DNA of 64,000 nucleotides from Watersipora subatra. Its lineage: Eukaryota. The DNA lies in NCBI RefSeq assembly GCF_963576615.1, contig NC_088708.1:42797115-42861114 (forward strand). The letters are read 5' to 3'. The position numbers and the translations under genes were made by a program. Positions within the stretch are counted from its first letter, which is position 1. Each line of letters opens with the position of its first letter. Below, in pieces: positions 20,441-56,342 of this stretch. Under the pieces are notes generated by a model. It worked only from the letters and a program-made list of their open reading frames with translations. It was not told the origin of the DNA and ran no database searches.

Positions 20441-20454
20441 CTGCAAAACAAGTA

Positions 20455-27184: not shown

Positions 27185-27343
27185 TTATGTATAAAACATA
27201 ATCTCTGGAATCTGACCGTCCTCAACTGAGGTGCCGTTATTGTTGCCAGCTGCGTACGAAAACTGAAACGATATTTTTCCACTAGTTGGAGACTCGTGGG
27301 TCACTTTTCTCAGTCCCTTACTTCCGTAATAGGAGTCGGGTCC
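27185..27343 (-). CDS. BTBD6: BTBD3/6 terminal exon ([52 protein letters not shown])
   Basis: It is a near-identical match to the BTBD3/6 C-terminus [54 protein letters not shown] gttttag acceptor precedes it in phase 0, and the stop TAA is the reverse complement of 27185-27187. Confidence 0.85.
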
Positions 27344-28744
27344 CTAAAACATTAACGACAAGGTTATGCGAATCCCAATAGACCATGTTCAAAACGCCCT
27401 AGCCAAATTAACTAACTAATCAATCAACTACTAAATTAAGGGTGCTTAAGGGTATAAACATGCTTATTAATTAATTAACGAGCTCACAATTAATTTATAT
27501 GAGCTGTTTTACTCAATGGCAATATGGCAAACACAATATGGCATGAAATTGTAAATGATGAACCATCTTATAAATACCGCAACAATTTTAACGAGGACAA
27601 TACGCTTTTAAACATGTTACATTATATTACAGGGTGATAACTGAATTTCAGACTAGATGCTTTCTTCACTGTTGGAACTCAAGCTAATGCCTTAATTTTA
27701 CTTTTATGCAGCATGTTATTAATCTAGAGCATTTGTGTGGGGAATATAACTCATTGTATGAAATATGGTTCGACCAATAACCATTTTTATTTCTATGCAG
27801 TGAACGACCAGCAAGACCCACCACTTTTTCACACTAAACTATCATTATAGAAACTACCACTTTGGAAAGTTGCATCTATTTTATGAAAAAAACATTCACT
27901 TTGTAAGAGCTAATAACTCCAAAACTGAATTTGGCCTGTGATGGTTGTAAAACCTGTCTATCAATCCAAGTGTTAAAATTGTTAAATCACTTCAGGTTTC
28001 TTAGGATTAAAAGTTACAAGGTAAAAAATAGTAAAAAAAACCTGATACAAATGTAAAAGTCATGAAAAGATTATATTGTCTTGAAAACAATTGAAATATT
28101 GTGATTAATGATTATTGTATCAAAACTAAAGAATGCCAACAACTGCTGTATATTGAGAGTATGCCGATTGCTGGACTTCATTTCAATAACACGCATTGCT
28201 TATAACTACAATAATTAGCCATCATTAAGGGCCACCCAAAAGTCCAGAGATAGCCTAGGTTTTCTGTGCTCTATTACTTGCTCTAAAGATAGGGAGAGAA
28301 GGTACAAATACTATGAAGACTATGATGTCAGGATGTTTTGGGCCAAAGATTACATTTAGCGGGAAAAACTTTTACGCTTTGCATTTGTGTTAAATGCTAG
28401 CATCAAAGTGTTGCTTTGCCAAAAAATTGTTTGGACGCTAACATCGACTAGTTCAGCAGTGCAAAAGTGTTGAGATCTAAAAACATTGTGGAAGGTATTG
28501 GACAACCAGAAGATGTTTGTTCCATCGAAAGCAACAATCACAACGCAGCTATCCAAGCAAATAATGCAAATATTTTTGTTTTACATACATTAATTTTTGT
28601 TTTTGCATGTATTATAAGTATGGTTCGTTTATGTCACCTGTTCATGAATATATATTTGTGGCATTTGATAAATTATCATTACATAACTTGTAAATTTGCA
28701 GACTTATAGTATACCAGATGAATGCCTAACGTTGCCTGAATAAC

Positions 28745-29310
28745 AAGTCTTTGCAAAAAAAATTTATTTTCATTTAACGTATAACAACAGTTACCATTCT
28801 AACTTTCCAACTCCATATCATGAGAAAAGTTTTTTGTGCAATTTGAATAAATTAGGAGAAAAGTAAAACAACTGTTAAGGTTTTTAAACATGGTCAAACA
28901 ACTGTAACTTTCCAACTTCATATCATGAGGGAAATGTTTGGTGCCTGTCAAATAAAGTAAAAAACAAAATGAAACAATTATAAAAGTGTTTAAATGTAAA
29001 TGTGAAATAATTAGCAAGTAATAGCAAAATTAAGTCTGTTTTGCTACGATTACAATAAAAAATGATTTGGTAATAATACAACCAATACGAACTGAGAGAA
29101 CAAAATAAAAATTCTGAATATGTTGAATTAATAATAACAGTTCGTGCATAGAAGTGTGTGTGTATAAAAAAGGTTACTGCTGCAGCATAAGCTATTCATC
29201 AATACTTTGAATACAACGATACTGGTACCTCTCGTTATGGGTACAAATGTACAAATGAGATATCGTAGTGTCTTTGTCTGGTATTTTGTCTGACCGAACA
29301 GAGACAGAAT
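28745..29310. repeat. Left copy of a ~500-bp dispersed repeat; it is inverted relative to the copy at 46630-47115 and contains an internal ~65-bp tandem duplication
   Basis: Its reverse complement matches 46640-47100 (cgttcggtcagacaaagacag...gtaccagtgtcgagaggtacc...). ORFs 29128-29355(-) and 46627-46923(+) encode the same peptide, which shows the identity. Confidence 0.6.
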
Positions 29311-29529
29311 GTAGAGGCTATTTCTACTCGATATAATAGAAGTGTAATGGCCCACTTGAAATTGAAATGGTACATTTAAAAATACAATTTAAAAAAATAG
29401 GTAATGGTAGCAAAAAACTAGTTTTTAAACAATTTCAAAAAATAACAAATGCAAAAGGTAATATTAGTTACTAATCAAAGGTGCACATTTAGTGTGTACT
29501 TTTTGGTATATGATAAGAGCGATAGAATG

Positions 29530-29615
29530 CCAAGGACTGTATTGCTCAGTGGTTAAATGCGTGGTTTGAAATTTACCATTGCAATCTCCGTGAGTTCAAA
29601 TCCAGCATGCAGGGA
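29530..29615 (+). repeat. tRNA-derived SINE-like segment, or a degenerate tRNA pseudogene
   Basis: It has an A-box-like TGCTCAGTGGTTAAATGCG and a B-box-like GAGTTCAAATCC. The stems do not pair as in a functional tRNA. Confidence 0.3.
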
Positions 29616-30111
29616 GCTATTCATTCTAAGGTTTTAACAGCTATAACTGGACAGGCAGAGATTTGAACAGACGACCAACTGAGATCTATATATATGTCTA
29701 TAGATTATTTGATAATCTGTATACGACCAAACCAAATCGTGATATACGGCCAAACCAAATCGTGATTAATGGCCAAACCAAATCGTGATATATCTATATC
29801 ACGACCAAACACTCGCCTCGCTCGTGTTTGTGATGGCATCATTGCAGTAATCTGATCTTACAATGGATCGACACTCGTAACTCCTCTTCTAATGCACTCA
29901 AAAAGCTAGTTTTGGCTGCAAACGTATTAATGAGTGCAATGAGCTTTTATGCAACATTGGTAAATAGAGACATAAAATAAAAATAAGTCTTCAAATTTAG
30001 AATGAAATAAAAATTGAAAGTTTCAACAAATTGCAAAGCAGGACACAGATTAATCATCGCAGGTTAATTGCAAGCTATAGATATCAACTGGTAGAGACAT
30101 TTCTCGGTTTA

Positions 30112-30117
<6 letters not shown>

Positions 30118-30162
<45 letters not shown>

Positions 30163-30440
30163 CTATATTTCCCAACTAGGAGGCTTCTATCAATATATAA
30201 TCCATGTTAGGAGGCTCTGAAAAATTAGGAGGCGTCCAGGGAGCCTCCTAATTCTAGCAGTGTTTATAGTGCTTACCAACCCTATAGAAGTATTTTAAAC
30301 ATGATTCCCATAATCGCCTTATATATCTATATTCATATATATGGAAAAGAGGAGACAACTCCAACAAAAATGTGTAATTTTCTATCAATAAATTATAAAC
30401 CCTAGGAGGCTCTTATATATGGAACTAGGAGGCATATCAA
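30118..30440. repeat. (TA)20 microsatellite followed by a cluster of CTAGGAGGC motifs
   Basis: (TA)n lies at 30118-30158. About eight TAGGAGGC motifs follow, up to 30440. The motif is the reverse complement of the satellite core GCCTCCTAA. Confidence 0.8.
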
Positions 30441-31954
30441 TTTTAAAACATTCTTACTTTTAACTGTTTTGGTATCGTTTCAGTTAATAGCACAATCTAT
30501 TTAAAAACATATTGCAATAAGTTTATGACTAAGCATCAGCAAATACAAAGAATTAGCAGCTATGTCGGATACAGTCAGTTTTGCTAATATTCATGATAGC
30601 TTTATTAGATTTGAGAAATAAAGTTGTATATTAACAAACTACAATACATTACAATTTATTTGCTGACCCTCTTTATAGTTTTCAAGACTGCCATTTAAGC
30701 ACTCCCTTTTTTGCAAGGTTTCTCATTGATCTGCTCTTTTTTGTGAAAATTCACAATAATTGCACATTATGGTTTCAACTGATGTTTAAGCATGGCTGTA
30801 GTAAAAGTTTAAATAAGTCTATAATCAGTACAATTCATATTTTCGATGCCGTTGCATCCAGCCACAAAATAAATATTTTTTTGAAACTTTGCATCCAAAC
30901 GCAATACCTGAGAGATGGTTTTTTAGTCGAAGAATTGATTTTTTAAATTTATTGAAGTAAAGTGGCAAAAGTATAACCACAGTATATAACAGCTAGAGAG
31001 ATGTGGCTGTTATAATGTTGCTGTGGCTGTTAGGACTATTAGTTCTTCACTCATGTAGTCTACTAGAGCTTGGTAGCAGCAGAATGACTACATGTAAGGG
31101 AGCAAGTCACATTCGGTAAGTTGTTCATGTTATTTTAGTCAATTTACAGTTTATTTACTTGAAACATACAGTTGTAGAAAAGCAGTATAAATTTTATTTA
31201 ATATTGAAATAGGACTAGCGTGAAAAAAGTATGTTTCAATTATTATAATTTTTAAGGAATGTAGCACAGAACACGTTTGATATATTTTTTACATCCGTTT
31301 ATGTCATCCAACTGCTGATATTGTTCTGCATAGAAAAGTCAAGAAAGGTCAGCATTATATTACCAAAAAGGAAAAAATCAAAACTTTTTGTAAAGTCCTA
31401 ATTTTTGACTTTATTATTGTTACACGAATGTTCAGTTTTGTAACATCAACACAGACACGCCAGCTGACAATTAATAGTTATTTTAGTGAATCAGTTAATT
31501 CTCCAACTTTAATCTATTTTCAGTTATTATTATTATAATTTTTGATGTTTTTTTATAATGATAAGTAACGTTATTAATGTGGTTCTACCAACAGTCAAAA
31601 CTGTTATTAGAATAACATGATCATAAAGTAATTGTATTATTGTTATCATGAATAGTGAGAGTTTGCGTATTTCAGTTATGATTTTGTAAGTAATAGTAGT
31701 ACATGCATAGGCATAAGCAAGTAAGTGGGTATATGCAGCCTTTGAATTTTGAAACTTTTAGTATTTAGTTTGAATCTTGTGTAGTAATTGTGTAGTAATT
31801 AAGAGCTTAGCTGTTTTATAGAGCTTCAGTAGTAGGAGGCAGACATTCAAGTTTGCCAAAAAAAACCTAACCAGTGAACTAAAATGTGTATTTTGCATTC
31901 ATTTTGGTTTGTATATCTGTTTATGCTACTTGAATTATCTTTTCATTTTTGTAG

Positions 31955-32041
31955 AAACTTGGTAAGCATTGTTGCCAAGATGGCATATTTATCAGATGGC
32001 AGAGAGTATTAGACAAAGTTGGATGTTCTTTTCTAGAAAAG
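31955..32041 (+). CDS. Diverged copy of the Tudor-like exon-like segment (KLGKHCCQDGIFIRWQRVLDKVGCSFLEK)
   Basis: The same acceptor and donor context (tttttgtag ... GTATGT) is present. It is 29 codons with no stop, but the Tudor signature is degraded. Confidence 0.2.
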
Positions 32042-35000
32042 GTATGTTGCTAATTACACGTTGGTTTGCATAAAAAATATGTCAAAATAATCAAGGTTTC
32101 ATCTACCGAAATTTATAATATTTTTTAACATATACATAATTATAGATTACAAACTATAAAACATTATATCAGTAAGGTTGTATTTTGAAATGTAGTAAAG
32201 TTTGACGTTTTGGCAAAGTCACTATGATAAGCAAAACTTTAAATTCACCAACACAAAATATACTGTACAAAGTTTTACTGTAACTAGCAAATGTATACCT
32301 GACGTAAGAATGTAACAGCATGCCCAAAAGTGGTTTTTCTTTGTATAGTTGCAAATAATCAATGACGCTTTAGTTATAGATAACTGCTGGATGAGAAGCA
32401 TTGATGGCCCACACCAAAGACTGATTTGCAGACATCAAATTAAAGGTATGCGATATTGCAATAAGTTGCTGTAAAATAGCACATTATACATGCGAGCCAA
32501 AAATTAGTGTAATAATTTGATATAGCCATAGCTTCAGTAAGAAAAGTTGTTAATTTTTACAGGCATTGTATTATTTAAACGCTTACATAAACCATTATGC
32601 CACTTTTGTGTTCTATTCATCTATTATTGGCAGATTACATAATATAAATAGCGCAAACCAATCAAAGGAATGTAGCATAGCAAAGAGATTTAGTATTGCT
32701 CTTCTTAGTCTTTATGAGTCATGGTTGCAATTGCTGAGCAATTGCATAATTATATAAAATGAATAGTTTTCCATGGTTACTCATTACCACTTTTAGTTAC
32801 TCAGTCAACACTGAGAGTAATTATCAGATTTGAGATATCATGTTTAGAGGCAGGAGATTGACAAATATTTTGTTGGTTTTTACTCTTACCCTACCGTATG
32901 CGAATTTATGCTAAATCTATCAGCAACTGCCGTATGCACATTTTTGCGAATTTTCCAACAATTGCGTGGTCACCTAATTTTATTATCCATTAAAAACATA
33001 ACGGATGATTTTAAAACTTTGATGGTATTGTCAGTGTGGTTCGAATATTTCTCTAATAGATTAGTCTAAGATAACCAAGCAGTTTCAAATTTTTTTTTGA
33101 GAATTTCCAAAATAAAAATGGACATTTTTTGTGTAAGTTTTGTTAAGTATCGCGCAAGTCAGAAAACATATAATTACTTACATGTATGTTGATGACACTA
33201 TAGTCAATTCAAATTCAGATTTTTGTGATTACACAGATAATTAAATTAGCAACAGTGACTCTGATGATAGTGAAAATAATAGTTTTTTAAGTGTAAGGGA
33301 CATTGTAGAGCATCCGTTTTAGCTTTGTAGCGATTGTAGCTTCACATAGCGTTAGCAATGCACAAAGTGAAGGTACATTGATTTTTGCATAGCACTATAT
33401 GTTAACATTTTAGCAAAATAAAATATATTACAAAAAGTTTATAGATAAACTTTGAAGTTGAAACAAAATAGTATACATGCTTCATGTACATATCATGAAG
33501 CTAAATTGGCAATTTTCGGTGAAATGGCTGGCGGTAGGCCGGTAGCTTAGTTTGTACATGGGTGGCAGTAAAAGGGTAAAGCTATAAAAGAATTAGAGAT
33601 ACAAGTGTATGTATTTCCTTTTAAATGATTTAGTGAACTTTGATGATTCAAGACAATGAGTTTGGCGAATGATATATATATATAAGATGCTGCTGAAGTT
33701 GCGCAATTCAACTCATGGCTTTTAATTATTACCTCAAAATGTTGAAAACACGCGATAGGAAGGGCCAGAACACTACTAAAACTCATAGTTACTCAAACCT
33801 GAAATACAGTAGGTTTTATACAAATTGCTGTACAATAACAAAACTGCAAAACTATTGGTTAAAATATAAATAGCAATATATATTATTATTTTTGGCCTTC
33901 GGTATCGGGCAGCATGTATGCAGTTTGTTTGCTGATGTTAACAAAAGTTTTACTAATAAGCTACATAATTTGCTCAATTATTTGTGTCAACTTTAAAATT
34001 TAAAACAAATGTAGTGTTAGCACTTTTAGGATATACTACAAACAACGCAGAGGAACTTTTTGTGGCATATGACTTGAATTTAAAAGTTCTCTGAAAATGC
34101 AACTTGTATTTGCCCATTTTAATACTTTAAAATGTCAAAGGGAGCTCATAATGAAAGCAACGTTAATATAATTTCAAGATGCTCAAATCGGTACGGATGT
34201 TATGTTGACAAACATTAAAAGGTCACTCTGTACTATGGCTAGTAAGTTTTTACATGTATTTAGATTTTGCATTGATGTTTTCAATTAGGTAGTGTAGGAA
34301 ATCTATTTACATTAGCTAAATTACCAGCATGTGCAATACCCAGCTTTGTTTCCTATCCATCCCAAACATTTTGCCAATGCTTATAATAATTCATTGCTCT
34401 TTTCAAATCTCATTTCTGAACCAAAGGTAGTTTTAGCAGTATAAGAACATATACTTCTCTTCCTATGGGTCTACTCACTTTTCTGTAGCAGCAAAGGCCA
34501 TTGTTTTTAAAAGGTCTGTAAGAATTGTATTACTTATTTTGACTTCCATTGGTGCTCGTAGCAAATATAATTTCAGTACAATTTGCATCAATAAAGTTAT
34601 TATTACTTGTTTGTAAAGTATTTGGAGCAAAACAATATTTTATGTGCACAGCAAACATTTTTGCTGCAAGCTTACCAAAACAAAATAAAACGTTTATTTT
34701 TATGTTACATTTTAATTAAACATCATGTTCTATTCAGTTATTGCTGTCAGTACTATGCAGTTATTGCTGTCAATGTTCTTTGTGCATTCTTGGCACACTT
34801 TTATGTTAAACTTCCAATGCATTAAACACTTTAGAAATAAAGTGTCCAAACAAGGATGCATAACATGAGATTTGTCACTGGCTTGTTTTGACCTATATCT
34901 AGCACTCTTTAGCCAAAGGTGTCTAGCTTTACTAAAATATTTGGTAGTGAAATTGTACATAAATTCATTGCCTGCATACACATCAATCATGATGCCTATG

Positions 35001-36135
35001 CTCTTATTATGTGTTCTACTATTGCCTGCTTAGCTAATTCACTTTCTACTTCTCAATAGCCTCAGCCTCCGAATGAAAGCTATTGTTGTTATTCCTATTC
35101 TTTGTAACTTTATAATGAAGGAGGTTGTGGTTGGGCAGCTCATTTGCTTTTCACTCTATTAGAAATATTGCAGCACAAGTATAACTGCAGTAATAAAATC
35201 TTCACAGAATTGCATAATGTGGTCTTATTCTCCAAGGTCTTCTCACTAGCAGAAATGACCTATGTACTTATGCAATTGTGGTTTGTGCTTAAAGTGACTC
35301 ATTCTCCTAATGTGGCATGGCTTTGCTATCTTCTTGCATGCTAGTCAATTGATTAAATAGATTGTAAGAAGCAAGCCAACCTCTCATTCCTACACAACCT
35401 AAAGACTTATCACATAAGTTCAACCTTCTAGCGAGATTGTAGCCGCTAAACATTTTGCTTTTTTCACGCGTCTAGCCATTCAGGGTTTTGCAGCAGCAGA
35501 AGAACAGACTAATCATGTCACAATTGGTATATTTGTTTGTCACAATTGTTTTATATTACTTTTGCCAATTTTGTCATTGAATTAATTGTACCATATTATG
35601 GTGAAAAGGCATCATGAAAAAGTATTTTACTTCGCCTCAATACCAATGCGAAAGGTTAGACCGGTAGTGGCCATTTTTGACCTTTAGGGCGAGCCACTTT
35701 AAATACTATATCTAAGCAACTTACTCATGTCATCAAATTGCGACGGCAAACAACAATGCATAGGTTTTCGCAGCTAATTTGGATTTGGATTTTACTGCCT
35801 TAATTGCAAGATCGTAATATTGTCAAGTTAAAAAGGTCAAGAAACCCCAACTTTATAATGCTAAAAGAATGAAATTATTACTAATTTTCATAAAATGATA
35901 ACTTTGTAATTATACACAAGGGTAGCTTTGTGAGATTAACCGACACACATTAAAATAGTTATGGTAACATATAGCTCAGTAGCCAGCAATTGATGAATAT
36001 CTGTGACTCTGTCGATGCTCCTAACTTTTGTAACTTTTTAAAAAGCATTAAAATAATTATGGATGCTTTTTATTCTGATTAGTAGTGTTAGCTGATTGAT
36101 AGCACCAAACAGGCAGAATTATTAGTAGCCTATAC

Positions 36136-37280
36136 TATACTGCCCTGAGCAAGCAAAACGCTGTATCTTGATATTTGTAAATTGTTCAGCACAAGCACAA
36201 ACGCGTTTTGGTCAAGCCTGGCATCAGTATTAGCAGTATTTTAGTTGTTTTTTTTTATTTATTATGGTGAGATATCCAACAATTTTTACTGAATTTTTTT
36301 TTCGTGAAACTTTAAAATCAAAGGAGTTATTTCACTTAGGGCATTTTGTTTGCTTAAATTGACAATTTACTAAGCTGGCACTAGGCAATCAAAACGCCCT
36401 ATCACTGCAGATAGGGCCTTTTGATTGCTTAATTGGACTGGTTTCTCATTGTTAGTTTGCCACAAGACCATTTGCCATGACTGGATTATCAAAGGATTAC
36501 AAGTTTAAATTCTGATATTAACCCGCAATTAGTCAACAAAATGATATATGTTGCAATTCCTATTACTCATCCAGTCAACACATGGATTAAAACCCTGTAA
36601 TAGCCATATTTAGCTCAAAAGTTAAGAGATGATCAAAGATCTAGGTATCCTTCAAACCAGATGTCATGAAATGAAAGGAATAAGTAAAATAGTAGTTTAA
36701 AAAAGATCAAACGCTTTTATTAAAAATAATTTAAAGCAAACAACTGAGTGCAATAATTTCAGTATTTTAAAAAAGCAAAACCTTCCAATGGACATGTAAT
36801 TAAAACAAATTTTTCATCAAATCTCTGAGTCGGATCTTTAAATCGAGACTTTTGTCACTTAGATATCGTCTTGTCATAATAAATATATTATGATAAAAAA
36901 TATAGCAATAAGATTGAGCACTTAGAAGTGCACTAGCTTGTATGAGCTGCCTTGAAACAACCAAATATATATGCTTCAGTTTCGCTTCCCTTTGTTTATA
37001 TACTCTTTGATTACATAATGCTTTTCATAATGTCAAACTTTGTGTATGTTCAGGCCAATCAAAACGCTGTATCTGCAAATAGAGCGCTTTGATTGCCACT
37101 TTATGTGTGGTAAATGTGGATAGGGCGTTTTGCACATTGTGAAATGTGCTATTTCTGGTGGTCTCAGATATATGAAATTTTGAGACATGTTAGATCTCAA
37201 CCTAAATTACATTGAAGCACAAAAAAGTAAATCTTGAAAAACTTGTCAGATAGGGCGTTTTGCTTGCTTAGGGCAGTATA
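36136..37280. mobile_element. MITE-like element (~1.15 kb) with ~26-bp terminal inverted repeats and internal perfect palindromes
   Basis: The left end TATACTGCCCTGAGCAAGCAAAACGC matches the reverse complement of the right end TATACTGCCCTAAGCAAGCAAAACGC at 25 of 26. There are internal hairpins at caatcaaaacgccctatcactgcagatagggccttttgattg (36379-36420) and caatcaaaacgctgtatctgcaaatagagcgctttgattg (~37055-37095). Confidence 0.5.
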
Positions 37281-42069: not shown

Positions 42070-45000
42070 ATTATAGCAGACTCTTAGTTGATCTATAAGT
42101 GATAGCAACATCCCAAATTATATGTAAGCCATGGCACCTCTGCATTGATATGTAAGTTATAGCAACCTCCTAAATGATATATAAATAACAGCAGCTTCCT
42201 AATTACTATATAATTCATTGCAGCCTCCTAACTGATATATAAATAGTAGCTACCAACTATATAAAATTCAAATTATAGTAAACTCTTTTGTGATCTATAA
42301 GTCATAGCAACATCCTAAATTCTATGTAACCCATAGCAACCACTGCAATGATATGTAAGTTATAGCAACCTCCTAAATGATATATAAATAGCAGCAGCCA
42401 CCTAGTTAATATATAATTCATAGCAGTCTCCTAACTGATATATAAATAGTACTGTAGCTACCAACTATATGAAATTCAAATTATAGCAAACTCTCAGGCG
42501 ATCTATAAGTGATAGCAGCATCCTAAATTATATGTAACCCATAGCAGCCTCTGCAATGATATGGAAGTTATAGAAACCTCTTAAATGATATATAAATAGC
42601 AGCAGCCTCCTAATTAATATATAATTCATTGCAGCCTCCTAACTGATATATAAATAGTAGCTACCAACTATATGAAATTCAAATTATAGTAAACTCTTAT
42701 GTGATCTATAAGTCATAGCAGCATCCTAAATTCTATGTAACTCATAGCAACCTCTGCAATGATATGTAAGTTATCGCAACCTCCTAAATGATGTAAAAAT
42801 AGCAGCAGCCTCCTAATTTATATATAATTCATTGCAGCCTACTAAATGATATATAGATAATATCTATCAACTATGGAAAATTCAAATTATAGCAAGGTCT
42901 TAGGTGATCTATAAGTGATAGCAACATCCTAAATTATATGTAACCCATAGCAGCCTCTGCAATGATATGTAAGTTATAGCAACCTCCTAATTGATATATG
43001 AATAGCAGCAGCCTCCTAATTAATATATAATTCATAGCAGCCTCTTAACTGATATATAAATAGTAGCTACCAACTATATGAAATTCAAATTGTAGTAAAC
43101 TCTTATGTGATCTATAAGTCATAGCAACATCCCAAATTATGTGTAACACATGGCACCTCTGCAATGATATGTGAGTTATAGCAACCTCTTAACTGATATA
43201 TAAATAGTACTGTAGCTACCAACTATATGAAATTCAAATTATAGCAGACTCTTAGTTGATCTATAAGTGATAGCAACATCCCAAATTATGTGTAACACAT
43301 GGCACCTCTGCAATGATATGTGAGTTATAGCAACCTCTTAAATGATATATAAATAGCACCAGCTTTCTAAGTAATATATAATTCATTGCAGCCTCCTAAC
43401 TGATATATAAATAGTAGCTACCAACTATATGAAATTCAAATTGTAGTAAACTCTTATGTGATCTATAAGTCATAGCAACATCCTAAATTCTATGTAACTC
43501 ATAGCAACCTCTGCAATGATATGTAAGATATAGCAACCTCCTAAATGATATATAAATATCAGCAGCCTCCTAATTAATATATAATCCATAGCAGCCTCCT
43601 AACTGATATATAAATAATAGCTATCAACTATGGAAAATCCAAATTATAGCAAGGTCTTAGGTGATCTATAAGTGACAGCATCATCCTAAATCATATGTAA
43701 CTCATACCAGCCTCTGCAATGATATGTAAGTTATAGCAACCTCCTAAATGATATATAAATAGCAGCAGCCTCCTAATTAATATATAATTCATAGCAGCCT
43801 ACTAACTGATATATAAATAACTGCTATCAACTATGGAAAATTCAAATTATAGCAAGGTCTTAGGTGATCTAAAAGTCATAGCAACATCCTAAATTCTATG
43901 TAACCCATAGCGACCTCTGCAATAATATGTAAGTTATAGCAACCTCCTAAATGATATATAAATAGCAGCAGCCTCCTAATTAATATATAATTCATAGCAG
44001 CCTCCTAACTGATATATAAATAATAGCTATAAACTATGAAAATTCAAATTATAGCAAGGTCTTAGGTGATCTATAAGTGATAGCAACATCCTAAATTCTA
44101 TGTAACCCATAGCAACCTCTGCAATGATATGTAAGTTCTAGCAACCTCCTAAACAATATATAAATATCAGCAGCCTCCTAATTAATATATAATTCATAGC
44201 AGCCTCCTAACTGATATATAAATAATAGCTATAAACTATGAAAATTCAAATTATAGCAAGGTCTTAGGTGATCTATAAGTGATAGCATCATCCTAAATTA
44301 TATGTAACTTATAGCAGCCTCTGCAATGATATGTAAGTTATAGCAACCTCCTAAATGATATATAAATATCAGCAGCCTCCTAATTAATATGTAATTCATA
44401 GCAGTCTCCTAACTGATATAGAAATAATAGCTATCAACGATGGAAAATTCAAAATATAGCAAGGTCTTAGGTGATGTATAAGTGATAGCATCATCCTAAA
44501 TTATATGAAACTCATAGCAGCCTTTGCAATGATATGTAAGTTATAGCAACCTCCTAAATGATATATAAATATCAGCAGCCTCCTAATTAATATATAATCC
44601 ATTGCACCCTCCTAACTGATATATAAATAATTGCTATCAACTATGGAAAATTCAAATTATAGCAAGGTCTTAGGTGATCTATAAGTGATAGCATCATCCT
44701 AAATTATATGTAACTTATAGCAGCCTCTGCAATGATATGTAAGTTATAGCAACCTCCTAAATGATATATAAATATCAGCAGCCTCCTAATTAATATGTAA
44801 TTCATAGCAGTCTCCTAACTGATATAGAAATAATAGCTATCAACGATGGAAAATTCAAAATATAGCAAGGTCTTAGGTGATCTATAAGTGATAGCATCAT
44901 CCTAAATTATATGAAACTCATAGCAGCCTTTGCAATGATATGTAAGTTATAGCAACCTCCTAAATGATATATAAATATCAGCAGCCTCCTAATTAATATA

Positions 45001-45830
45001 TAATCCATTGCACCCTCCTAACTGATATATAAATAATTGCTATCAACTATGGAAAATTCAAATTATAGCAAGGTCTTAGGTGATCTATAAGTGATAGCAT
45101 CATCCTAAATTATATGTAACTTATAGCAGCCTCTGCAATGATATGTAAGTTATAGCAACCTCCTAAATGATATATAAATATCAGCAGCCTCCTAATTAAT
45201 ATGTAATTCATAGCAGTCTCCTAACTGATATAGAAATAATAGCTATCAACGATGGAAAATTCAAAATATAGCAAGGTCTTAGGTGATCTATAAGTGATAG
45301 CATCATCCTAAATTATATGAAACTCATAGCAGCCTCTGCAATGATATGTAAGTTATAGCAACCTCCTAAATGATATATAAATATCAGCAGCCTCCTAATT
45401 AATATATAATCCATTGCACCCTCCTAACTGATATATAAATAATAGCTATCAACTATGGAAAATTCAAATTATAGCAAGGTCTTAGGTGATCTATAAGTGA
45501 TAGCATCATCCTAAATTATATGTAACTCATCGCAGCCTCTGCAATGATATGTAAGTTATAGCAACCTCCTAAATGATATGTAAGTTATAGCAACCTCCTA
45601 AATGATATATAAATATCAGCTGCCTCCTAATTAATATATAATCCATAGCAGCCTCCTAACTGATATATAGATAATTGCTACCAACTATGTGAAATTCAAA
45701 TTATATCAATTTCTCAAATGATCTATAAGTTATAGCAACATACTTTATTATATGTAAATCAGAGCAGCTTCTAAAAGAAACAAGTTATAGCAAACTCCTA
45801 AATGATATAAGTTACGGCATCTTACTAAAG
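42070..45830. repeat. Satellite array with a ~203-bp monomer (202-208 bp), ~18 copies, degenerate at the 3' edge; it contains three ~40-bp subrepeats built around GCAGCCTCCTAA
   Basis: The anchor gatctataagt recurs at 42090, 42292, 42500, 42703, 42905 and onward. The variants agtGatagc and agtCatagc alternate, which suggests a ~405-bp higher-order unit. The array lies inside the BTBD terminal intron. Confidence 0.9.
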
Positions 45831-46129: not shown

Positions 46130-46291
46130 TAATAATTAGGAGGTGAATAAATATATATATATATCTACAATGTAGATAAATTAGACCATATAGGAGGCTT
46201 ACCCATATATATTTGCGTTAACTCCTAATCCCTTATATTCCGCAACCTCCTAACTGGTATATATTTATTCAACTCCTAACTCGGAAATATG

Positions 46292-46325
<34 letters not shown>
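46130..46325. repeat. Cluster of CCTCCTAA and TAGGAGG motifs followed by a (TA)15 microsatellite, a mirror image of 30118-30440
   Basis: The motifs lie at 46130-46290 and (TA)n at 46296-46325. Confidence 0.8.
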
Positions 46326-46326
<1 letters not shown>

Positions 46327-46629
46327 TTCTCAAAGTTCGTCTTCTGTTCTTCGGTATGTCCAGCTATAGCTATTAAAATTTTGGAATTGAAATTTCGCAA
46401 TCTGCTGCACTTGAACTCACGAAGATTGCAACCGCAGTTTTGCAATAAAATTCTCTAACCATGAGACCGCGAAAGCTCTTACAATTCATCGCTCCTACAC
46501 CCAAAATAACGCACTATTTGAAACGCCATGCATTCTACTAACTCTATGAAACATGATGCTTTTTTGCTTTTTTTTATCGTGAACTTCTAATTCCGGTTTT
46601 TCGTGAAGTTCAATTACTGAATCGCGGTG

Positions 46630-47115
46630 AAGGTCAATACTTTTTATGCGAACAATTCGTTCGGTCAGACAAAGACAGTCCGATATCCCATTTTTACATT
46701 TGTACCAGTGTCGAGAGGTACCAGTGTCGTCGTAGTCAAAGCTTTGATGGATAGCTTATGCTGGAACAGTAACTTTTTATACACACACACTTCTATGCAA
46801 GAATTGTTATTATTAATTCAACATATTCAGGATTTTTATTTTGTTTTCTCAGTTCGTATTAATTGTACATATCATTACCAAATCAGCTTTTATTGTAATC
46901 GTAGCAAAACAGACTTAATTTAGCAATTACTTGCTAATTATTTCACATTTACATCGAAACTCTTTTATAGTTGTTTTATTTTGTTTCTTAACTTATTTGC
47001 CCTGCACAAAACATTTCCCTCATGATATGAAGATTAAAAGTTACAGTTGTTTGACAAAGTTAGAAAACCTTCACAGTTGTTACAAATAAATTTTCTGTGC
47101 AGACTTTTTTATTAC
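46630..47115. repeat. Right copy of the ~500-bp dispersed repeat, inverted relative to 28745-29310
   Basis: See the left copy. The two copies bracket ~17.3 kb that includes the 203-bp satellite. Confidence 0.6.
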
Positions 47116-47329
47116 CAAGGCAATGCTGGGTAGTACAGCAATGCTGGGTAGTACAGCTAGTCAATCCAAATTTATTAAGACATTTCTGACAAGCTGGAGG
47201 TAAGTTAACAGATTTAATGCATCCAAAAGGTTTAATATCGCTCCACCGAAAAAGGAGGACAAAATATAGGCAACATTCACGTCGCCCGTAAAAGGGTTAG
47301 AATTATCTTCCCAAAATTCTGAAAAGCCA

Positions 47330-47460
47330 TTTGAAAAATACAACGCCATTCTCTATTCGAACGCCAGTCTCTATTTGAACGTCACCTCCAACTGACCGCC
47401 ACTATGGAAAGGTTGAAAAATAGAGCGCCGTGGCATTTAATTAGAGGTTTTACCGTAAGT
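47330..47460. repeat. Second copy of the dispersed repeat seen at 6650-6800
   Basis: It matches 6650-6800 in reverse complement. Confidence 0.4.
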
Positions 47461-48103
47461 TAAATCTATAGTTTATGTTAGGTTACATAGCATAGCGTCA
47501 TAAAAGAGTAGCGTACCAAACGTGTTGCTGTCAAGTCGCTCTATCACAGTCGATAACCGCAACCATCTGCCTTGAAGGAAAGAATTCCGCACCGCACATA
47601 ATAATGTTCCATTGTATTGCAAATCATAACCACTAGATAGATATTTGTTAGTTTGGTGAACTAGAACAATTAAAAATACGTTTTCCATCATAAGACCTTG
47701 TTTTTAAACAGCTTTTTAGAGGATGGGAACGGATTAATTTGTATTTAGATATTTTTTAAAGGAAAAATTGATTTGAGCTATGAGAGAATTGATGTACAAG
47801 CACGGTCCCGGAACACCTTAAGCTTGTATGTCGGGGTATGACTGTATACAACTTTTTTAAAAATGGGATTCTAGTCAAAGATTTTTAATAAACAGAGTGG
47901 AGGTCACAAAATAAAGGTAATCTATGACAGAAGCGAGTTAAGTGGCACTTACATGCTTATTTTGATGATGCTAAAGAATATAATACCCTCTACTATCAAG
48001 AAAAATTACATTAGTTATTTAAAAGAAATTAAAATACTGTTTTCCAATTGCCTGCTATCACTAAACTTTAGCTAATAGAACATGTCAAAAGAGATATACA
48101 GAC

Positions 48104-48250
48104 CTTGAGAGTTATGGCTGCAATGTAGTGAACGCAGGGGAGTATTTCAACAGGCTCTTTGAACATCAATCGGAATGTTGAGCTGCTTCCATCGCATGAG
48201 AAAGATGCGTCTGTTGAGCCCAGTACCCTCTGTGTGTCAGCGCTCAGAAT
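48104..48250 (-). CDS. BTBD6: BTBD3/6 exon 4, PHR (ILSADTQRVLGSTDASFSCDGSSSTFRLMFKEPVEILPCVHYIAAITLK)
   Basis: It matches [49 protein letters not shown]. It is 49 codons between a cacacag acceptor and a GTCTGT donor. Confidence 0.8.
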
Positions 48251-49007
48251 CTGTGTGAAAGTGAGAAGAAAATAATGTTTTAATAAACCCTGCAACAGAT
48301 TTCTGGTAAGGTCTTTGGAGGATAATTCAGCTCCAAGGTGTGAATTGGTAACAAAAACATCATAGTCGAATAAGAAGAGAATGATGCATAACTATTGACA
48401 ATATTGACCTTGAAGGACTACAATGTGAACTCACCAAACTTACACCGATATGAATAGAACAGTAAACCATTACCTGCGGAGAGATTCTTTAGTAAATTAA
48501 ACATATATATTATATCTATATCTTATATTACATTCTTATTGGTCAAGTTGATTTTGAGGATATTTGTAGCTTAAAAAGGCTAATATGTACGCTGAAGTGA
48601 GTACAGTAAAATGTTTACCAAAAAATGACAGAAAGCATGACAAGAAAATATGAGAAAATATAAAGAATGTGCAACAGGAGCATAAACGCATAAAATACAC
48701 AGAAGAGTAAAGATGAGAAAGAAGGAAAATACCGGCTTAACAAATGGAAGGAGTTTTATCAAAAACATAACAAGTGCCTTGTAGTGAATAGTGTATGGCA
48801 CGTGTTTCTTTGGTAAACCAACTGGCTGCTGAATGGTGTGTTACGTGTCTACAGAAATATCTTAAAATAGACTATAATTTTTCAAGTAAGGCATCAAGTT
48901 TCAATGTAATCAGGTTTCCTCAAAATTTTCAACACTGATATAATTACCATAATTAGGGTGTAATTCTAATTTGCATTGACATACATGAGTAAAAGAAAAA
49001 GCTATAC

Positions 49008-49156
49008 CTCAATAGTGGCTGAATATTCTGCAGCTCCGTGCACACTTCCATAGACACCGAATCCAGCAACAAATATTTTCTTTGTTACCAGAAACCTAGA
49101 ACAGACACTAGTAATTGACAAGGTCGCGTCTGCAGATCTATTGAGATGTTGGTACA
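49008..49156 (-). CDS. BTBD6: BTBD3/6 exon 3, PHR (VYQHLNRSADATLSITSVCSRFLVTKKIFVAGFGVYGSVHGAAEYSATIE)
   Basis: It matches [54 protein letters not shown]. It is 149 nt between a ctctag acceptor and a GTATAG donor; phase 1 in, phase 0 out. Confidence 0.75.
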
Positions 49157-49240
49157 CTAGAGCCTACAATAAATCTGACAGACTGTTTAGTTAGTAATTA
49201 TTAGAACACATTAAAACTACAGTGTCTATAATTACACATA

Positions 49241-49995
49241 CAGTGAAACTCGGATAACTCGCCCTCGGATATCTCGAACACATGGTTAACTCGAACGGAT
49301 TTGTTCGGTCTGTTCCCACGCAATGATAAATTGCTTTAGATAACTTGACCTCAACTTCGTTAACTCGAACAGTTTTTTTGCCCAACGGCTACCGAGACGG
49401 TTGTTATCGCTTTAGAATATGACTTTATTCCAAGCCATAGAGATAAACAACAACTTTTAGTAAGTTCTTAGGCGTCATTATTACCACTATCGGCAAAATA
49501 TTTTCGTTAACAACTTTTCTAAAGGTTTGCAAAAATCAAATTTTACCAAACATCCGCTAGAGGATAGCCTTCCGCAAGCACGGAGAACCAAGGTAACCGT
49601 CAGATAAACTTTTAAGAAAACTCAGCAAAACTGGTTTTTGTTAAAACGCTCAAAAGAAAATGATGTCCTTTTTCTGAGAGTTTCAACCGCGATAGGTTTT
49701 GCGTATTTTAATCTGAAAACGCCCTGGCAGTCACATCACCTAAAACAAACAAACGAATCTCAAGTAATAAAAGAAAAATATTTATATTTTCTGATAAAAA
49801 TTGTTAAAACATTACATGAGAGGTCCCTTAACTTGCAACAAGCAATCAATGCTTTTGATTTATATATAGTTTGTATATGTACTGATAAATACAATAATAC
49901 ATGCACTTGTGACAGTGTTCTCATAACTTGAATGCTCTGATAACTCAAACACTTTCTCTCGGTCCCATGGAGGTCGAGTTAGCCGAGTTTCACTG
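49241..49995. mobile_element. Tc1/mariner-derived non-autonomous element (MITE), 755 bp, with a TA target-site duplication
   Basis: The left end CAGTGAAACTCGGATAACTCGCCCTC and the right end, the reverse complement of CAGTGAAACTCGGCTAACTCGACCTC, are flanked by TA at 49239-49240 and 49996-49997. No ORF is present inside. Confidence 0.7.
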
Positions 49996-50524
49996 TACAT
50001 ATATATATAATTTTTGAAAGTTTTAGATTCATTCTTAGCCTTTTGCGAAACTAACTAGCGCCCTTGTCAGCATTTGGTAATCAACTTTAGTACAACATTA
50101 GTGTTAGTTCTAGATGACAACTAGTGTTTGTATTTGCAATTTAATGCACTAAGCCCTCGAGTTATAATGTCCCTGTTATACAATTTTTCCACCTTACGAA
50201 GTGGAACACAAAGGTTTTTCGTCCTCACCACACAAATCCTATTTCACCATATGAATTCAACAAAAATTTCGCTCGAAATTCAAATTTGGCAGTCTGTGTG
50301 CTTATTACGTCGAAATAACAAAGATGTCGATCCCCGAAAAACAGTGTACAGTAACATAATTAACATTGATAGTTTTTGCCTCCTCTCTGCTCTACCCACT
50401 AGGGTTGCACGATAGCTCGATAGTCGATAGTTGTCTTTCTCGATATGAATATGTTGCCTATTTTTAGCCTATCGAAACATCCGAACCAAATATATCGTTA
50501 TCGAATAATAACAAATAATATAAC

Positions 50525-51245
50525 CCGATAGTTATCGCCCTCGGATAGCTCGAACACATGGTTAACTCGCAACGGGTTTGTTTGGTCCGTTCCCACGCAA
50601 TGATAAATTGCTTTAGATAGCTCGACCTCAACTTAGTTAACTCGAACAGTTTTTTGCCCAGCGGCTACTACGACGGTTGTTATCGCTTTAGAATATCACT
50701 TTATTCCAAGCCATAGAGACAAACCTCAACTTTTAGTAGTTCTTAGACGTCGTTATTACCATCATCGGAAAAAACATTTTCGTTAACGACTTTTCTAAAG
50801 GTTTGCAAAAATCAAATTTTGCCAATCATCCGCTTAGCGATGGTCCTCCGAAAGCTAAAAAAAGTGAGCTAACCTTCGAATAAACTTACAGCCCCCTGTA
50901 AATCATTCCTGGGGGCTGTATATCATTGGTTAAAACGCTCAAAAAAGATGTCTTTTCTTCTGAGCATTTCAACAGCGATCAAGTTTGGCTAATTTTAATC
51001 TGAAAACGTCCTGGCAATCACATCACTTCAAACAAAAAACCAATCTCAAGTGATAGAAAAGTCTATACTTCCTGATGAATTTTTTTTAAACTCTACACTA
51101 GAAGCCTTTCAATTTGTAACAAGCCATCTATGCGTTTGATTTATATATATATAGTTTGTATATGTATATTTATCTACTAATAAATACATGGACTTGTGAC
51201 AGTGCTCTGATAACTTGAACGCTCTGATAACTCGAACACCTTTTC
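50525..51245. mobile_element. Second copy of the same MITE family, truncated or diverged at both ends
   Basis: It is about 80-85% identical to 49260-49960 by eye, reading ...ctcggatagctcgaacacatggttaactcg... It lacks the CAGTG termini. Confidence 0.55.
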
Positions 51246-51744
51246 CTATTCCTTCCCACAATCCTTGATCTTTTCAGGCACGATAATTCGATAGTTTTAC
51301 CAGCTGCCAAGTCACTCGATAACTATCGGTGAACTCTGTCTGCTCATTGATAATTCGATACTATCGCTATCGGTGGGACAACTCCAACGATAGCCAATAA
51401 CACCTTTTCAAACAACAAATGCCATCCCTACTACCCACTACATGCACCAGCTCAAGTCACTCCAGAGGTATAGTAATAAAATTCAGTTTTCCTTTTAATG
51501 GCCATTAAATGATTAAGCATGCGAGAGGTCGCTTTCGAGACAGCATCACTCGAGCTTTCTCGTTGAATTAGGTTAAAAAAGGTTTTAATGAGGTCGACTA
51601 AAAGTTATATTGAAAACGAAGCCGGAAACCGATAGGTGATAAAATTTTAGGCTGTGGCAAAATTATAGTTTAGTTTAGTAAAATACATGTACATACTAAA
51701 CTTATCTTTATGTGTGGGTTTAGTAAGCTAACTTCATTATTGTT

Positions 51745-52606
51745 AAAGGTTGACTTGCAACAAAATTCACATTACAGTTATTTGATATGAAAAGATTCAC
51801 CATGTCTTACTCTGTTGTGTTGTATGTGCAAAATATGTGGGAGTGTGATTACAAGCTCTTGCAGCCACACGAGATCGCCGTAGTTTGGATTCCCTTTCCA
51901 AAACGGCTCAAATGTAATGTAGTTGTGAGAGATGGTTTCTGTTTACACTTTCTTGCAACCTTATCCGTCGAAATATTTTCACGAATACTTGTATACTTCA
52001 CGCATTCAATAATAGTATGTCTATTGTTCTTATGCATCTGTTTTATCGTCATTGTAATGCTTTCAATTTTAGCACTGATATCTTATAACTTACCGTAAAA
52101 AATCGTTAAACTTTTTAACCTTAGCTTGAAGAAGTACATATCATTGTCTGATAATCATGACGAGCCTGTTGGTCACCTGTGATAATCGAAAAGTGCTGCA
52201 AAAATTATTTGCGAAGTATTGGGTCACATGATCAGATTACGACTTGACGATTGAATAATGCCGAAACAAAACTGTAAAGTATCGAGCATCTATATTTGAT
52301 ACGGGGTCTTCGGTAAAACCCGAAGTGTTTGTCATAAACTAGTACTATGATAAGTTTTATATTAAGCTTTGTATTGGCCTTTCAATTCACATGAGAACAT
52401 GCGTGACAAGACGATAACCAAATTTCGTGGTTACGTCATCGAAATAAAGAGATTCCAATCTACGGCGGCTTTTCGTTTTTGAGCTTTTAAGAGCTTGTAG
52501 TCACATTTCCACATATTTGGCACTTACAACACAACAGAGTAAGACATGGTGAATCTTTTGATACCAAATAACTGTAATGTGAATTTTGTTGCAAGTCAAC
52601 CTTTAA
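51745..52606. mobile_element. Foldback element: ~170-200-bp inverted arms around a ~500-bp core
   Basis: 51745-51905 is the reverse complement of 52395-52606 at about 88% identity (ggttgacttgcaacaaaattcacattacagttatttg...). Confidence 0.5.
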
Positions 52607-53196
52607 GTTCAAAGTCTATGTTATAAGTCTGTCTCGAAGGTAAGAACCCCCAACGGTACGTACTGCTACTACTGCACATACATGTTGTACATTGTAATGT
52701 TACATTTTATTGCAGATCTTAACCACTAACCACACTAAAGTTACTATAGGTAACTATAGTTTAAGGTTAACATAATACTTTGTTACCAAGTGTTAACATG
52801 TTCAGTACCTAGATAAAATTTTGATGATTTTTATCGGGAGATGTTTGCATTAAATATAATTACTATGGGTTTCTATACCAATTTATACGACATTTTCACT
52901 ATACGATGCCAACCCTGGAACAGATTAAATCATATGTCGAGGGCACACGGTACTCAGTGTTAGAATCAAAAATTTTCATGGTATTCTTTGTCTGTCTCCT
53001 TATACAGAACTACATATCAGTCTTCATTTATCTGAAGTTTCCTACTTGTCACGTTACAAACTGCTTTAGCGACAGTTTCTAATGAGATCTAATGATTACG
53101 CCATTGCTAAAATAACTCACTTTATTCGATCACTTGTGCCGCTATATCCCCAACGATGGTCCACCTGACAGAATCGTGAGACAACCTGTTCTTTAC

Positions 53197-53311
53197 CAGT
53201 CAAGCAACAGCGAGGAGTGATGGTGAATGAGATTTGTGGCTTAGGAGTGACGGTGAAGTAGAGAAAGAGTTCGACCAACTCCGAGTCTGTCAATATGTTA
53301 GATTGGGCTAC
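53197..53311 (-). CDS. BTBD6: BTBD3/6 exon 2, start of PHR domain ([38 protein letters not shown])
   Basis: It matches recalled BTBD6 [42 protein letters not shown]. A tgacag acceptor precedes it and a GTAAAG donor follows it; it enters in phase 0 and leaves in phase 1. Confidence 0.8.
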
Positions 53312-55088
53312 CTGTCACGAAGGATAAGGATAGGATCATCAACTGTGAATCACTCAAGTTTTAAACAGGTGTCGGTACCATTTCGCCTCTCAACATTTTT
53401 TATTTAAAATGTGTCTATGCAACAAGTGAAAGTATTTCGCTGACGCGAATTTAACTCTAGCGATCTACAAAACTGTTCGAACACACAAAACCAAGAGCGG
53501 CAGTAATGACAACCTTCCTAATACTGTAGTTTAACACTATGAACTAAACCCTTCATTGCATTGATGGAACGCAAACTGACACACCCCCAAATAAAAACAA
53601 CATATCTTCTATAGTCTTAATATACTAATTCAATCACGATGACTTATATTTGAAAAGCATCGGATTTGCTCACATACCTTTGTCAAACTTTTTATACTCT
53701 TTTTCATTTCTGGCAAATGCTAAGATTTATAGTACCACTATAAGCAGCAAACAGTATTCAGCATCTTTTAATATCATGAGGGCCAACTTAGAGAATCAAC
53801 ACCCGTGGTGATAACAAAAAGTATTGAGATTTTTTGCAAAACCGTATTTAAAAATGAAAATATTGGAACCTAAGGAAATTTTATTAGCAAGTAAAGGTAC
53901 ATAATTTTGATGTCGGCATTGTTTGCTTAGAATCAAACATTTTTATCAACTCAGAAAACGCAAAAGCCAAAAATATGATGTAATGCATGCGAAAACTGAG
54001 GAGAAACACTATTTGGCGTTACACCTGATTCGTTACCAAATATAGAATACTGAAACAATTTTAATAAAAAAGTAGAAAATATACTAAAAGATATGAAAAG
54101 ATAAAATGATTCATTGAATTTCTTGTCGAGCGTGCTTCAACTTGGTCTAATAAGTAATTGGGGAATAAAAGAAGTTTTTTATTTCAACAAAGCACAACAT
54201 TGAGGATTCCCTGACACGTTTTAGCTCAGTATTTCCACCGAATTTAATAAAAATGTCAACTCTTTAATATGAAAGGATATTTCTTTTAATAATAAATGAT
54301 AAATTTAGTAAATTTGTGAGATTTTCAAATCGATAGTCTGACCTAATGCTTAGTTAAAAATAAGAATTGTTTTCCTTATACATAGAATGTAAACTAGATC
54401 ACTCAAGCACTATTTAATCTGAAAGCTCTGTTATTTGGTCCATTCTATCATTTATAGATCAAAGACAGAACTTATATACGTACATTAAAAACAGTGCATG
54501 TATGAGTCAGACAGCCATATGCAGGCATAGAAAAACTTTATGATTGAAGCTTGAAGGCTAACTGACAGCACAAAAACTATTGCATTGACAGTAGCAAACA
54601 GCATTACAGAGATTTTTTGTATTTGTGGAATCAGCTTTGATCTTGTGATAAAATTATCTGCCATGCTGGATAAATAAAATGAAGTAATACGGCAACTACA
54701 TAGGGCAAATGTATTAAAATGCCGACCAACAGAAGTACTTTTGTTGCAAGTTCACATATAGGTTAATCATCGGCATTGACATCTACTAACAAAATGACCT
54801 TCCTATGTCAGTGCTTGGAGCTTACATCACGAGTGCTTTTGTTCTTCTATTATCAAAATCATTGCTGACAAAGATTATATAATTAATAATATATGCAAAT
54901 TCAAAATGCTATCAGTTAACCTTTAAGAGACATTGTAATGTGATAACCGAATTTAGGCTACTGATCCATAATACAAAATAAATTCTCTCTGTTTAAAGTG
55001 ACTCTTGGATTTTAACAAAGGAGTTGCTAGTAAATTATCACAGAGGGCAAGAGAGACAATTCGACCACGAAATAAGCTAGTCACTGAC

Positions 55089-56342
55089 CTGTACTGCAAA
55101 CTCCTCAACCGTCATTAATGGATAGCGAATCAGTCTAATAGCTTTGCCAAGTACTGTTCTTTGATTTTCGGCAGAAATCTCTAAATCCTGTTTGAGACAA
55201 GCATGCTCAGCCCATTTCGTCACAGCCGAGAACAGCTTACTTTCCCGAATGCCAAGTGAATCTCGTTCAAGTACAACGCATAGCGTCTCTAAGTCGATAT
55301 CAACAAAGCCATCGGATGAGAACGCTTCCGTTGTACATTTGTCTATAGAGTGCAAACACATCTTCTCGAGGACAGGCTCATCGAATAAACGAGCTTGTGT
55401 CAAAAGCATGAATACATTCTCACATTGAATATTGTCTTTTAGAAACTCGACGCATTCGTCTTCCAGGCGCGGTAGAGCATACTTTTTGGCGGTGTATAAT
55501 ATGGACATTACGGTCTCCGACTCAACGTTTATCTCATCTGTATAAATAAAACTGAGCATAGACTGAAAAGCTATTGGTTCAACATCTGGAATCTCTATCG
55601 CTGCCTCATCTATTGCTGCCTCATCCTCTACCGCCATCTGCGCCATCTGTCCATTAAACATGGCATTAAAGACAGCACTGCTCATACTCAGGACAAACTT
55701 GTGAGCCACAAATCTTTGAACCATTGGAACGACTGATGAGGATGAGGTCATTAGCAAGCTGCTACCACCCACTAAGAAAGTAACGTCAGACAAAGCGCCT
55801 GTGTTGAGCAAATACTGCAGCCGTGATTTTATAGAATGTTTGCTTGACTGCCAGTTATGTATAGGAGAAGGTTGCACCCCGTTAGCGGAATCTTGAGGAG
55901 TCGTGGCTTGAACTTTGTCATGGAGAATGAGTCCTAGACCACTCTGAAGCACCTCATCCGTAGTTGGCTCACAATCCGCCGATGGCGCCACGGCCATATT
56001 AGGAGATGAAAGCAATGATGGACTACCATTGCTTGTCGCGATTGATTCAACGGATGTGGTACGCCTAGTTGTTGCCTTGCGACAGTCATTACCATTTCCA
56101 AAATGGTTTTCCGGCAATTCCTCAGCTGAACATTCCGACTTCAAAGGATCATTTTTTGCTCGAAGTGTTAGGTTGCTAGAATGCTCTGACCTGTGGACTA
56201 TCCTTGGGTTGTTAGGTGAGAGGACGCCATCAGCAGCCGGGAGCCCGACATTGACTGGATTAAATTGTAGTGATTGAGGCCTCACCATTTCCACATCTGT
56301 TAAGTTCTCTTCAGCATCGGATTCACTTTCATACTCAGCCAT
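55089..56342 (-). CDS. BTBD6: BTBD3/BTBD6-family protein, exon 1: low-complexity N-terminus followed by BTB/POZ and BACK domains
   Basis: The ATG at 56340-56342 follows an in-frame TGA; the ORF track's start at 56351 is a GTG. The 418 codons contain SDVTFLVGG...RFVAHKFVLSMSSAVFNAMF...IEIPDVEPIAFQSMLSFIYTDEI...TVMSILYTAKKYALPRLEDECVEFL...FMLLTQARLFDEP...LGKAIRLIRYPLMTVEEFA, which matches BTB-BACK of BTBD3/6. A GTCAGT donor lies at 55088. Confidence 0.85.

Follow-up and report, generated by a model that had tools for sequence, protein, structure and literature searches.

How does a gene come to have its last coding exon more than 20 kb away from the rest of its reading frame, and does that exon really belong to it? 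The question is raised by the minus-strand gene at 27185-56342 of a 64,000-nucleotide stretch of the genome of the bryozoan Watersipora subatra (contig NC_088708.1, positions 42,797,115 to 42,861,114; this whole stretch is called the window below, and W. subatra features are given in its coordinates), for which a sequence-only reading had proposed five coding exons, a terminal intron crowded with repeats and a relationship to BTBD3/6. We consider it highly probable that the gene is a BTBD1/2 ortholog whose last intron has been passively inflated and is removed by ordinary splicing. This explanation is carried by an exon model that is identical to the NCBI protein P0001, a conserved exon junction, signs that the last exon is under purifying selection, the content of the intron, the recent turnover of a tandem array inside it and the shortness of the corresponding introns in orthologs.

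Gene model and family assignment

The BTBD1/2-type gene of W. subatra is already annotated by NCBI. A database search with the 424-residue (aa) open reading frame (ORF) at 55077-56351 on the minus strand, which holds the N-terminus including the BTB and BACK domains, returned P0001, a protein of 612 aa that is 100% identical to the query. An exhaustive boundary search, conducted over GT/GC-AG sites within 15 nt of the five tblastn segments of P0001, gave a unique GT-AG model with five coding exons on the minus strand, which reproduces the NCBI protein in 612/612 residues. Exon 1 (55089-56342; 1254 nt, with the ATG at 56342) encodes a disordered N-terminus followed by the BTB and BACK domains identified by Pfam, and is joined to exon 2 (53121-53311; 191 nt) and exon 3 (49008-49095; 88 nt), in which the PHR domain begins; these three were placed by tblastn of P0001 together with the unique model. 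Exon 4 (48104-48250; 147 nt), also evident from its translation, continues the PHR domain with the minus-strand peptide ILSADTQRVLGSTDASF...AAITLK, and exon 5 (27185-27343; 52 codons plus TAA), located by the model and by an ortholog profile, contributes the C-terminal third of the PHR domain in a minus-strand peptide that ends in EIMFYT and the stop. The four introns are all of the GT-AG type and measure 1,777, 4,025, 757 and 20,760 nt, which brings the coding span of the gene to 29.2 kb.

Pfam recognised the PHR domain at 1.7e-49 over the full profile (positions 1-151/151, residues 463-611), the BTB domain at 7.2e-25 and the BACK domain at 2e-10. The proposal of a complete BTB-BACK-PHR gene in five coding exons is thus borne out by the unique model and by Pfam, and the gene ends (27185 and 56342) and the two exons at 27185-27343 and 48104-48250 had been placed exactly, as comparison with the P0001-reproducing model shows. 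The length of the protein needs adjusting from ~607 aa to 612 aa. In short, the NCBI annotation of this BTBD1-like gene in W. subatra contains no internal contradiction.

The family assignment, on the other hand, has to be revised. Every named protein among the best 120 matches listed, in the N-terminal and in the C-terminal search alike, is a BTBD1, BTBD2 or BTBD1/2, and no BTBD3 or BTBD6 protein stands among these best 120 in either protein search. Over its C-terminal 194 aa the protein shares 68% of its residues with human BTBD2, and the solved PHR domain of human BTBD2 (3NO8) matches at E 1.3e-74, while the sole BTBD6 match is an isolated BTB domain (2VKP; E 4.5e-19, 71 bits). Judged by search ranking rather than by a formal tree, the gene therefore appears to be the W. 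subatra ortholog of BTBD1/BTBD2 and not of BTBD3/6. BTBD3 and BTBD6 proteins likewise have the BTB-BACK-PHR architecture, and it is this shared architecture that accounts for the earlier label. By analogy with what is known of the family, the W. subatra protein may act as a CUL3-type substrate adaptor.

The distant last exon and the age of its intron

Given that exon 5 lies 20.8 kb from exon 4, about 20-150 times the distance in orthologs, one might suspect that it is a misplaced piece of a paralog or a product of misassembly, with the true end of the gene elsewhere. The evidence on the exon itself speaks otherwise. The full PHR profile is matched only when exon 5 is included, the domain being incomplete without it (Pfam), and the exon is part of the NCBI model. 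The splice sites are conventional at both ends of the intron, with the donor CTCAAG/gtctgt at exon 4 and the acceptor tgttttag/GGACCC at exon 5, and the phase of the junction is conserved. A profile hidden Markov model of exon 5, built from 113 orthologs and run against all six-frame open stretches of the window, found a single match at 27188-27343 (E 1.5e-34), the next best hit (E 2.4) being noise, so that a closer alternative terminal exon, which would have contradicted the proposed gene structure, did not come to light in the window. Nor did tblastn at E <= 10 reveal any further copies of BTBD exons in the window that might accompany 27185-27343 as parts of a paralog.

Additional support comes from a related organism. 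A Logan contig of 2,318 bp (L001, run SRR4125604), which carries an uninterrupted ORF of 618 aa that is 62% identical over exon 1, crosses the exon 4/5 junction without an intron (...AAVTLKGPDSFYG..., also quoted as ...AAVTLKGPDSFYGGKG...), and this uninterrupted passage over the junction marks the sequence, which stems from a relative, as transcript-like. The join of 48104 to 27343 that the sequence-only reading had predicted is therefore both used in the NCBI model P0001 and traversed by this contig. Between exon 5 and its counterpart in the relative the protein is 94% identical and the DNA 79%, with 27 synonymous codon changes, a combination which indicates that exon 5 is under purifying selection. 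Taken with its proper acceptor, its conserved phase and its uniqueness in the window, this leaves hardly any room for the view that exon 5 is a stray fragment or an artefact, and we treat it as the genuine last exon of the BTBD1/2 gene.

The intron that separates exons 4 and 5 (27344-48103, minus strand, phase 0) interrupts the PHR domain at the boundary TLK/GPDS, and its measured length of 20,760 nt agrees with the ~20.7 kb stated before. For comparison we used three orthologous loci from other phyla together with metagenome and Logan contigs (L005-L007) of a closer relative, probably another bryozoan, in which the peptide of the last exon is 96% identical to that of W. subatra. The TLK/GPDS boundary in front of a last exon of 52-53 codons is common to Lingula, Gigantopelta, Branchiostoma and L005; the position of the intron is ancient. 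Its size at that position is quite different: the last intron has ~388 nt in Lingula anatina (coding span 2.5 kb), ~956 nt in Gigantopelta aegis (6.5 kb), ~416 nt in Branchiostoma lanceolatum (10.5 kb) and ~133 nt in L005, against 20,760 nt within a coding span of 29.2 kb in W. subatra. Because the same intron has only ~130-960 nt in these four other loci, the 20- to 150-fold expansion is specific to the Watersipora lineage.

The ortholog of the closer relative is compact, its six coding segments fitting into 3.4 kb (10346-13720 of L005; also present in L006 and L007, which like L005 come from the marine metagenome and Logan contigs), and an additional intron splits the region that corresponds to Watersipora exon 1.

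As for the scale of the expansion, the W. subatra genome comprises 783.7 Mb and carries 16,835 protein-coding genes, and its transcripts average 10.5 kb in length (PMC12902671). By our own arithmetic from these figures there are ~46 kb of genome per gene, and a gene of 29 kb is therefore large but not exceptional.

Contents of the terminal intron and its surroundings

What, then, has filled the intron? Its most conspicuous component is a tandem array at 42070-45809, delimited with TRF, motif scans and a monomer identity matrix, in which a 203-bp monomer, itself composed of seven diverged 29-bp subunits, recurs ~18 times, with one deleted variant of 149 bp. At 3,740 bp the array takes up 18% of intron 4, and all its copies have the same orientation. 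According to the identity matrix its youngest part is found at 44338-45555, where a 406-bp dimer is repeated three times and alternate monomers are 99-100% identical; such a dimer is the signature of recent unequal exchange in situ, and it shows an intronic array that is still turning over. Of the properties that define a satellite, the head-to-tail arrangement, the homogenised copies and the higher-order structure are all present, whereas abundance is known for one locus only. Motif scans did not find the 203-bp repeat elsewhere in the 64-kb window, and the commonest 29-mer of the array has no match in public metagenome contigs. The ~3.8-kb satellite with a 203-bp period announced by the sequence-only reading is thus confirmed as an array of closely similar length and the same period. 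The transcribed strand of the array contains one AATAAA, no AGGTA and two TTTTAG motifs, and with these so scarce the array should contribute almost no cryptic processing signals.

Two further ideas about the array deserve consideration. In the first, the 203-bp repeat would be a genome-wide and possibly centromere-associated satellite of Watersipora, of which a euchromatic copy would be actively expanding in an intron of an essential gene and would measurably affect elongation, splicing or chromatin of BTBD1/2. If this were true, the locus would offer a natural setting in which to study how an ancestrally compact intron (~130 nt in the close relative) copes with invasion by a satellite; we regard it as a long shot.

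In the second, the array would be functional and modulate the expression of its host gene by way of chromatin or small RNAs, or slow down elongation, as TCAST1 is reported to do in Tribolium (PMC4537270). Besides this precedent, the youth of the array and its continuing homogenisation could be read in favour of a function. However, recent homogenisation is just what neutral unequal exchange is expected to produce, no feature of the sequence points to a function, and the last introns of the four orthologous loci (about 130-960 nt) are far too short to accommodate such an array. We therefore hold a regulatory function to be highly unlikely and prefer to see the array as a passive part of the inflated intron.

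The other repeats of the intron had been described as an ~18-kb block bounded by inverted repeats. Indeed, a repeat at 28865-29285 on the plus strand (copy A) is 87% identical over 418 bp, with sharp boundaries, to 47081-46666, that is, to the copy on the minus strand at 46665-47085 (copy B), which is separated from the array by ~0.9 kb. Should these copies be the termini of a single mobile element, or the edges of an insertion or inversion, the array could have been brought into the intron with it, and two inverted segments of ~420 bp that are 17.4 kb apart, one of them adjoining the array, are what such an event might leave behind. Yet the homology is short and sharply bounded, amounting to ~420 bp and two small patches around (TA)n tracts, and a repeat mosaic that lies at 6.7-8.0 kb, beyond the gene, has segments in common with the flanks of both copies, though not the same ones for A as for B. 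Arms of only ~420 bp and 87% identity, set in different contexts, together with the lack of any transposase or other protein remnant between them in Pfam searches, do not make a composite transposon. No target-site duplication was seen at the junction inspected, and where the repeat at 28.7-29.8 kb is aligned with its copy at 7.2 kb the boundaries are too degraded to call an insertion with such a duplication. Moreover, the array motif is absent beside the other arm. A single 18-kb element or rearrangement is, in our opinion, very improbable, and copies A and B are instead two short interspersed repeats that happen to lie in opposite orientation; the inverted copies described before are real, whereas their interpretation as one delimited unit is not supported by the differing contexts. 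Microsatellites of the (TA)n type with short homologous flanks occur beside the two copies at 30110-30159 and 46294-46325, and a third tract is found at 6050-6080, near the repeat mosaic outside the gene.

A scan for terminal inverted repeats (TIRs), with 0 hits expected by chance, detected an element of 1,145 bp at 36136-37280 with 33-nt TIRs that are 91% complementary and with internal palindromic sub-repeats. We interpret it as a putative non-autonomous TIR transposon. With TACTGCC as the beginning of the TIR, a TA adjoins the element on either side, which in AT-rich DNA is weak evidence of a target-site duplication; there is one copy in the window, without a Pfam match, and its 1,145 bp exceed the usual size of a miniature inverted-repeat transposable element (MITE). 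Thus, of the MITEs that had been assigned to the terminal intron, this one TIR element does lie in intron 4, whereas the other, MITE-like element belongs to intron 2 (51743-52606; 864 bp, ends TTAA), where blastn found arms of 118 bp at 94% identity that are alignable to ~150 nt. Intron 2 also harbours a pair of direct repeats of ~700 bp (49259-49955 and 50535-51243, within 49259-51243) which are 81% identical.

An intron of this size might also host a transcription unit of its own on the plus strand, such as an antisense long non-coding RNA or a nested gene, and the sequence-only reading had indeed mentioned plus-strand, exon-like units with polyA signals as candidate antisense exons. The Ensembl annotation of W. 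subatra contains 17,199 non-coding genes (PMC12902671), which gives any 20-kb stretch a real chance of overlapping one, and the plus strand of the intron carries 31 AATAAA motifs. Against this, none of the 148 open stretches of at least 40 aa on both strands of intron 4 has a Pfam match at E <= 0.01, although the same procedure found a weak RT_RNaseH remnant at ~60 kb and is thus able to detect decayed elements. The longest ORF in the intron is shorter than 100 aa, and no Rfam family or tRNA was found anywhere in the 64-kb window. The AATAAA counts, 27 on the sense and 31 on the antisense strand, are near the ~28 per strand that we estimated from base composition, so that "exon-like units with polyA signals" are uninformative; they had in any case been given without coordinates. 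The proposed antisense exons thus find no backing here, and an independent transcription unit inside the intron is unlikely, if less so than the other alternatives considered in this section.

Based on these observations, we propose that an ancestrally short phase-0 intron of a few hundred bases grew to 20.8 kb in the Watersipora lineage. Growth would have proceeded by the accumulation of short interspersed repeats and at least one non-autonomous TIR transposon, while the 203-bp array would have been seeded inside the intron and expanded there by unequal exchange, most recently in the form of the 406-bp dimer. RNA polymerase II would then transcribe the whole intron passively, array included, and the spliceosome would remove it by ordinary splicing of 48104 to 27343.

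Several points weigh against this proposal and should be set beside it. The use of the 48104-27343 junction in W. subatra RNA is deduced from the annotated model, the transcript of a relative and conservation, and the matches to the C-terminal 194 aa comprise orthologs of other taxa and no transcript contig of W. subatra. The neutrality of the 203-bp array, for which no role has been demonstrated, is an assumption, and the view that a repeat-swollen intron, real as it is, is ordinary for W. subatra draws solely on the size of the genome, the number of its genes and the average length of its transcripts.

The surroundings of the gene contain a number of further features. On its downstream side very homogeneous minisatellites are found at 8255-8698 (21 bp x 21, 98%), 10996-11305 (45 bp x 7, 90%), 16473-16905 (39 bp x 11, 99%) and 18791-19394 (97 bp x 6, 96%); the region is rich in young tandem arrays, and the intronic 203-bp array therefore does not stand alone. 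At 14-18 kb the GC content is only 26-29%. An ankyrin-repeat exon at 20246-20629 on the minus strand (Pfam Ank_2, 3e-9) is probably part of a neighbouring gene; the upstream part of its ORF enters a tandem repeat of 21/49/56 bp (20447-20629). Between it and the BTBD1/2 gene, 1.6 kb downstream of the stop codon of the latter, the minus strand holds three ORFs of 199, 228 and 132 aa at 23598-25575, two of which overlap in different frames; apart from a BED zinc finger below the threshold (E 0.0021) they have no match, and they may represent the remains of a transposase of the BED/hAT type or a gene that has escaped recognition. Just upstream of the gene start, at 58000-62000, the plus strand has a strong positive GC skew of 0.18-0.23 and contains the pol of a retroelement in an advanced state of decay, recognised by the motif ELRYTMEEKALDINWV at ~60.02 kb and a weak match to RT_RNaseH (E 0.004, below the cut-off).

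Comparison with known systems

With regard to its protein, the W. subatra gene shares the three-domain BTB-BACK-PHR architecture of BTBD1/BTBD2 and has its terminal intron at the same position as the brachiopod, gastropod and amphioxus orthologs. It differs from these in a long, poorly conserved N-terminal extension of ~170 aa and in its span of 29 kb, compared with 2.5-10.5 kb in the orthologs examined. To BTBD3/BTBD6, in contrast, the protein is far less similar than to BTBD1/2.

The locus thus provides a clean and quantified case of lineage-specific intron inflation at a conserved position, from ~130-960 nt to 20,760 nt. Animal genomes commonly have long introns packed with repeats and tandem arrays within introns, and beyond annotation hygiene the finding has little significance, since nothing here challenges current understanding. 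The sequence-only reading had called transcription through a satellite array unusual, a judgement which is at odds with precedents in Tribolium and Drosophila. The dispersed satellite repeats of Tribolium castaneum show an enrichment in introns, which hold 1416 elements as against 957 in intergenic DNA (PMC5844308), and euchromatic arrays with a monomer length typical of satellites are abundant there (PMC4675708), while copies of human alpha satellite are dispersed in euchromatin (PMC7719264). The W. subatra array resembles the TCAST families of Tribolium and dispersed human alpha satellite in its head-to-tail arrangement, satellite-typical monomer, higher-order structure and intronic location, and is set apart from them in that its repeat is known from one locus.

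A more extreme example is offered by the Y-linked fertility genes kl-3 and kl-5 of Drosophila, which are transcribed through megabase satellite introns (PMC6508621). Here too, tandem repeats are transcribed before the exons are joined, as we propose for W. subatra. The introns on the Drosophila Y, however, consist of simple satellite over megabases and depend on a dedicated programme of expression, whereas the 3.7-kb array in the 21-kb terminal intron of the W. subatra BTBD1/2 gene is modest in comparison and lies well within the range of ordinary splicing.

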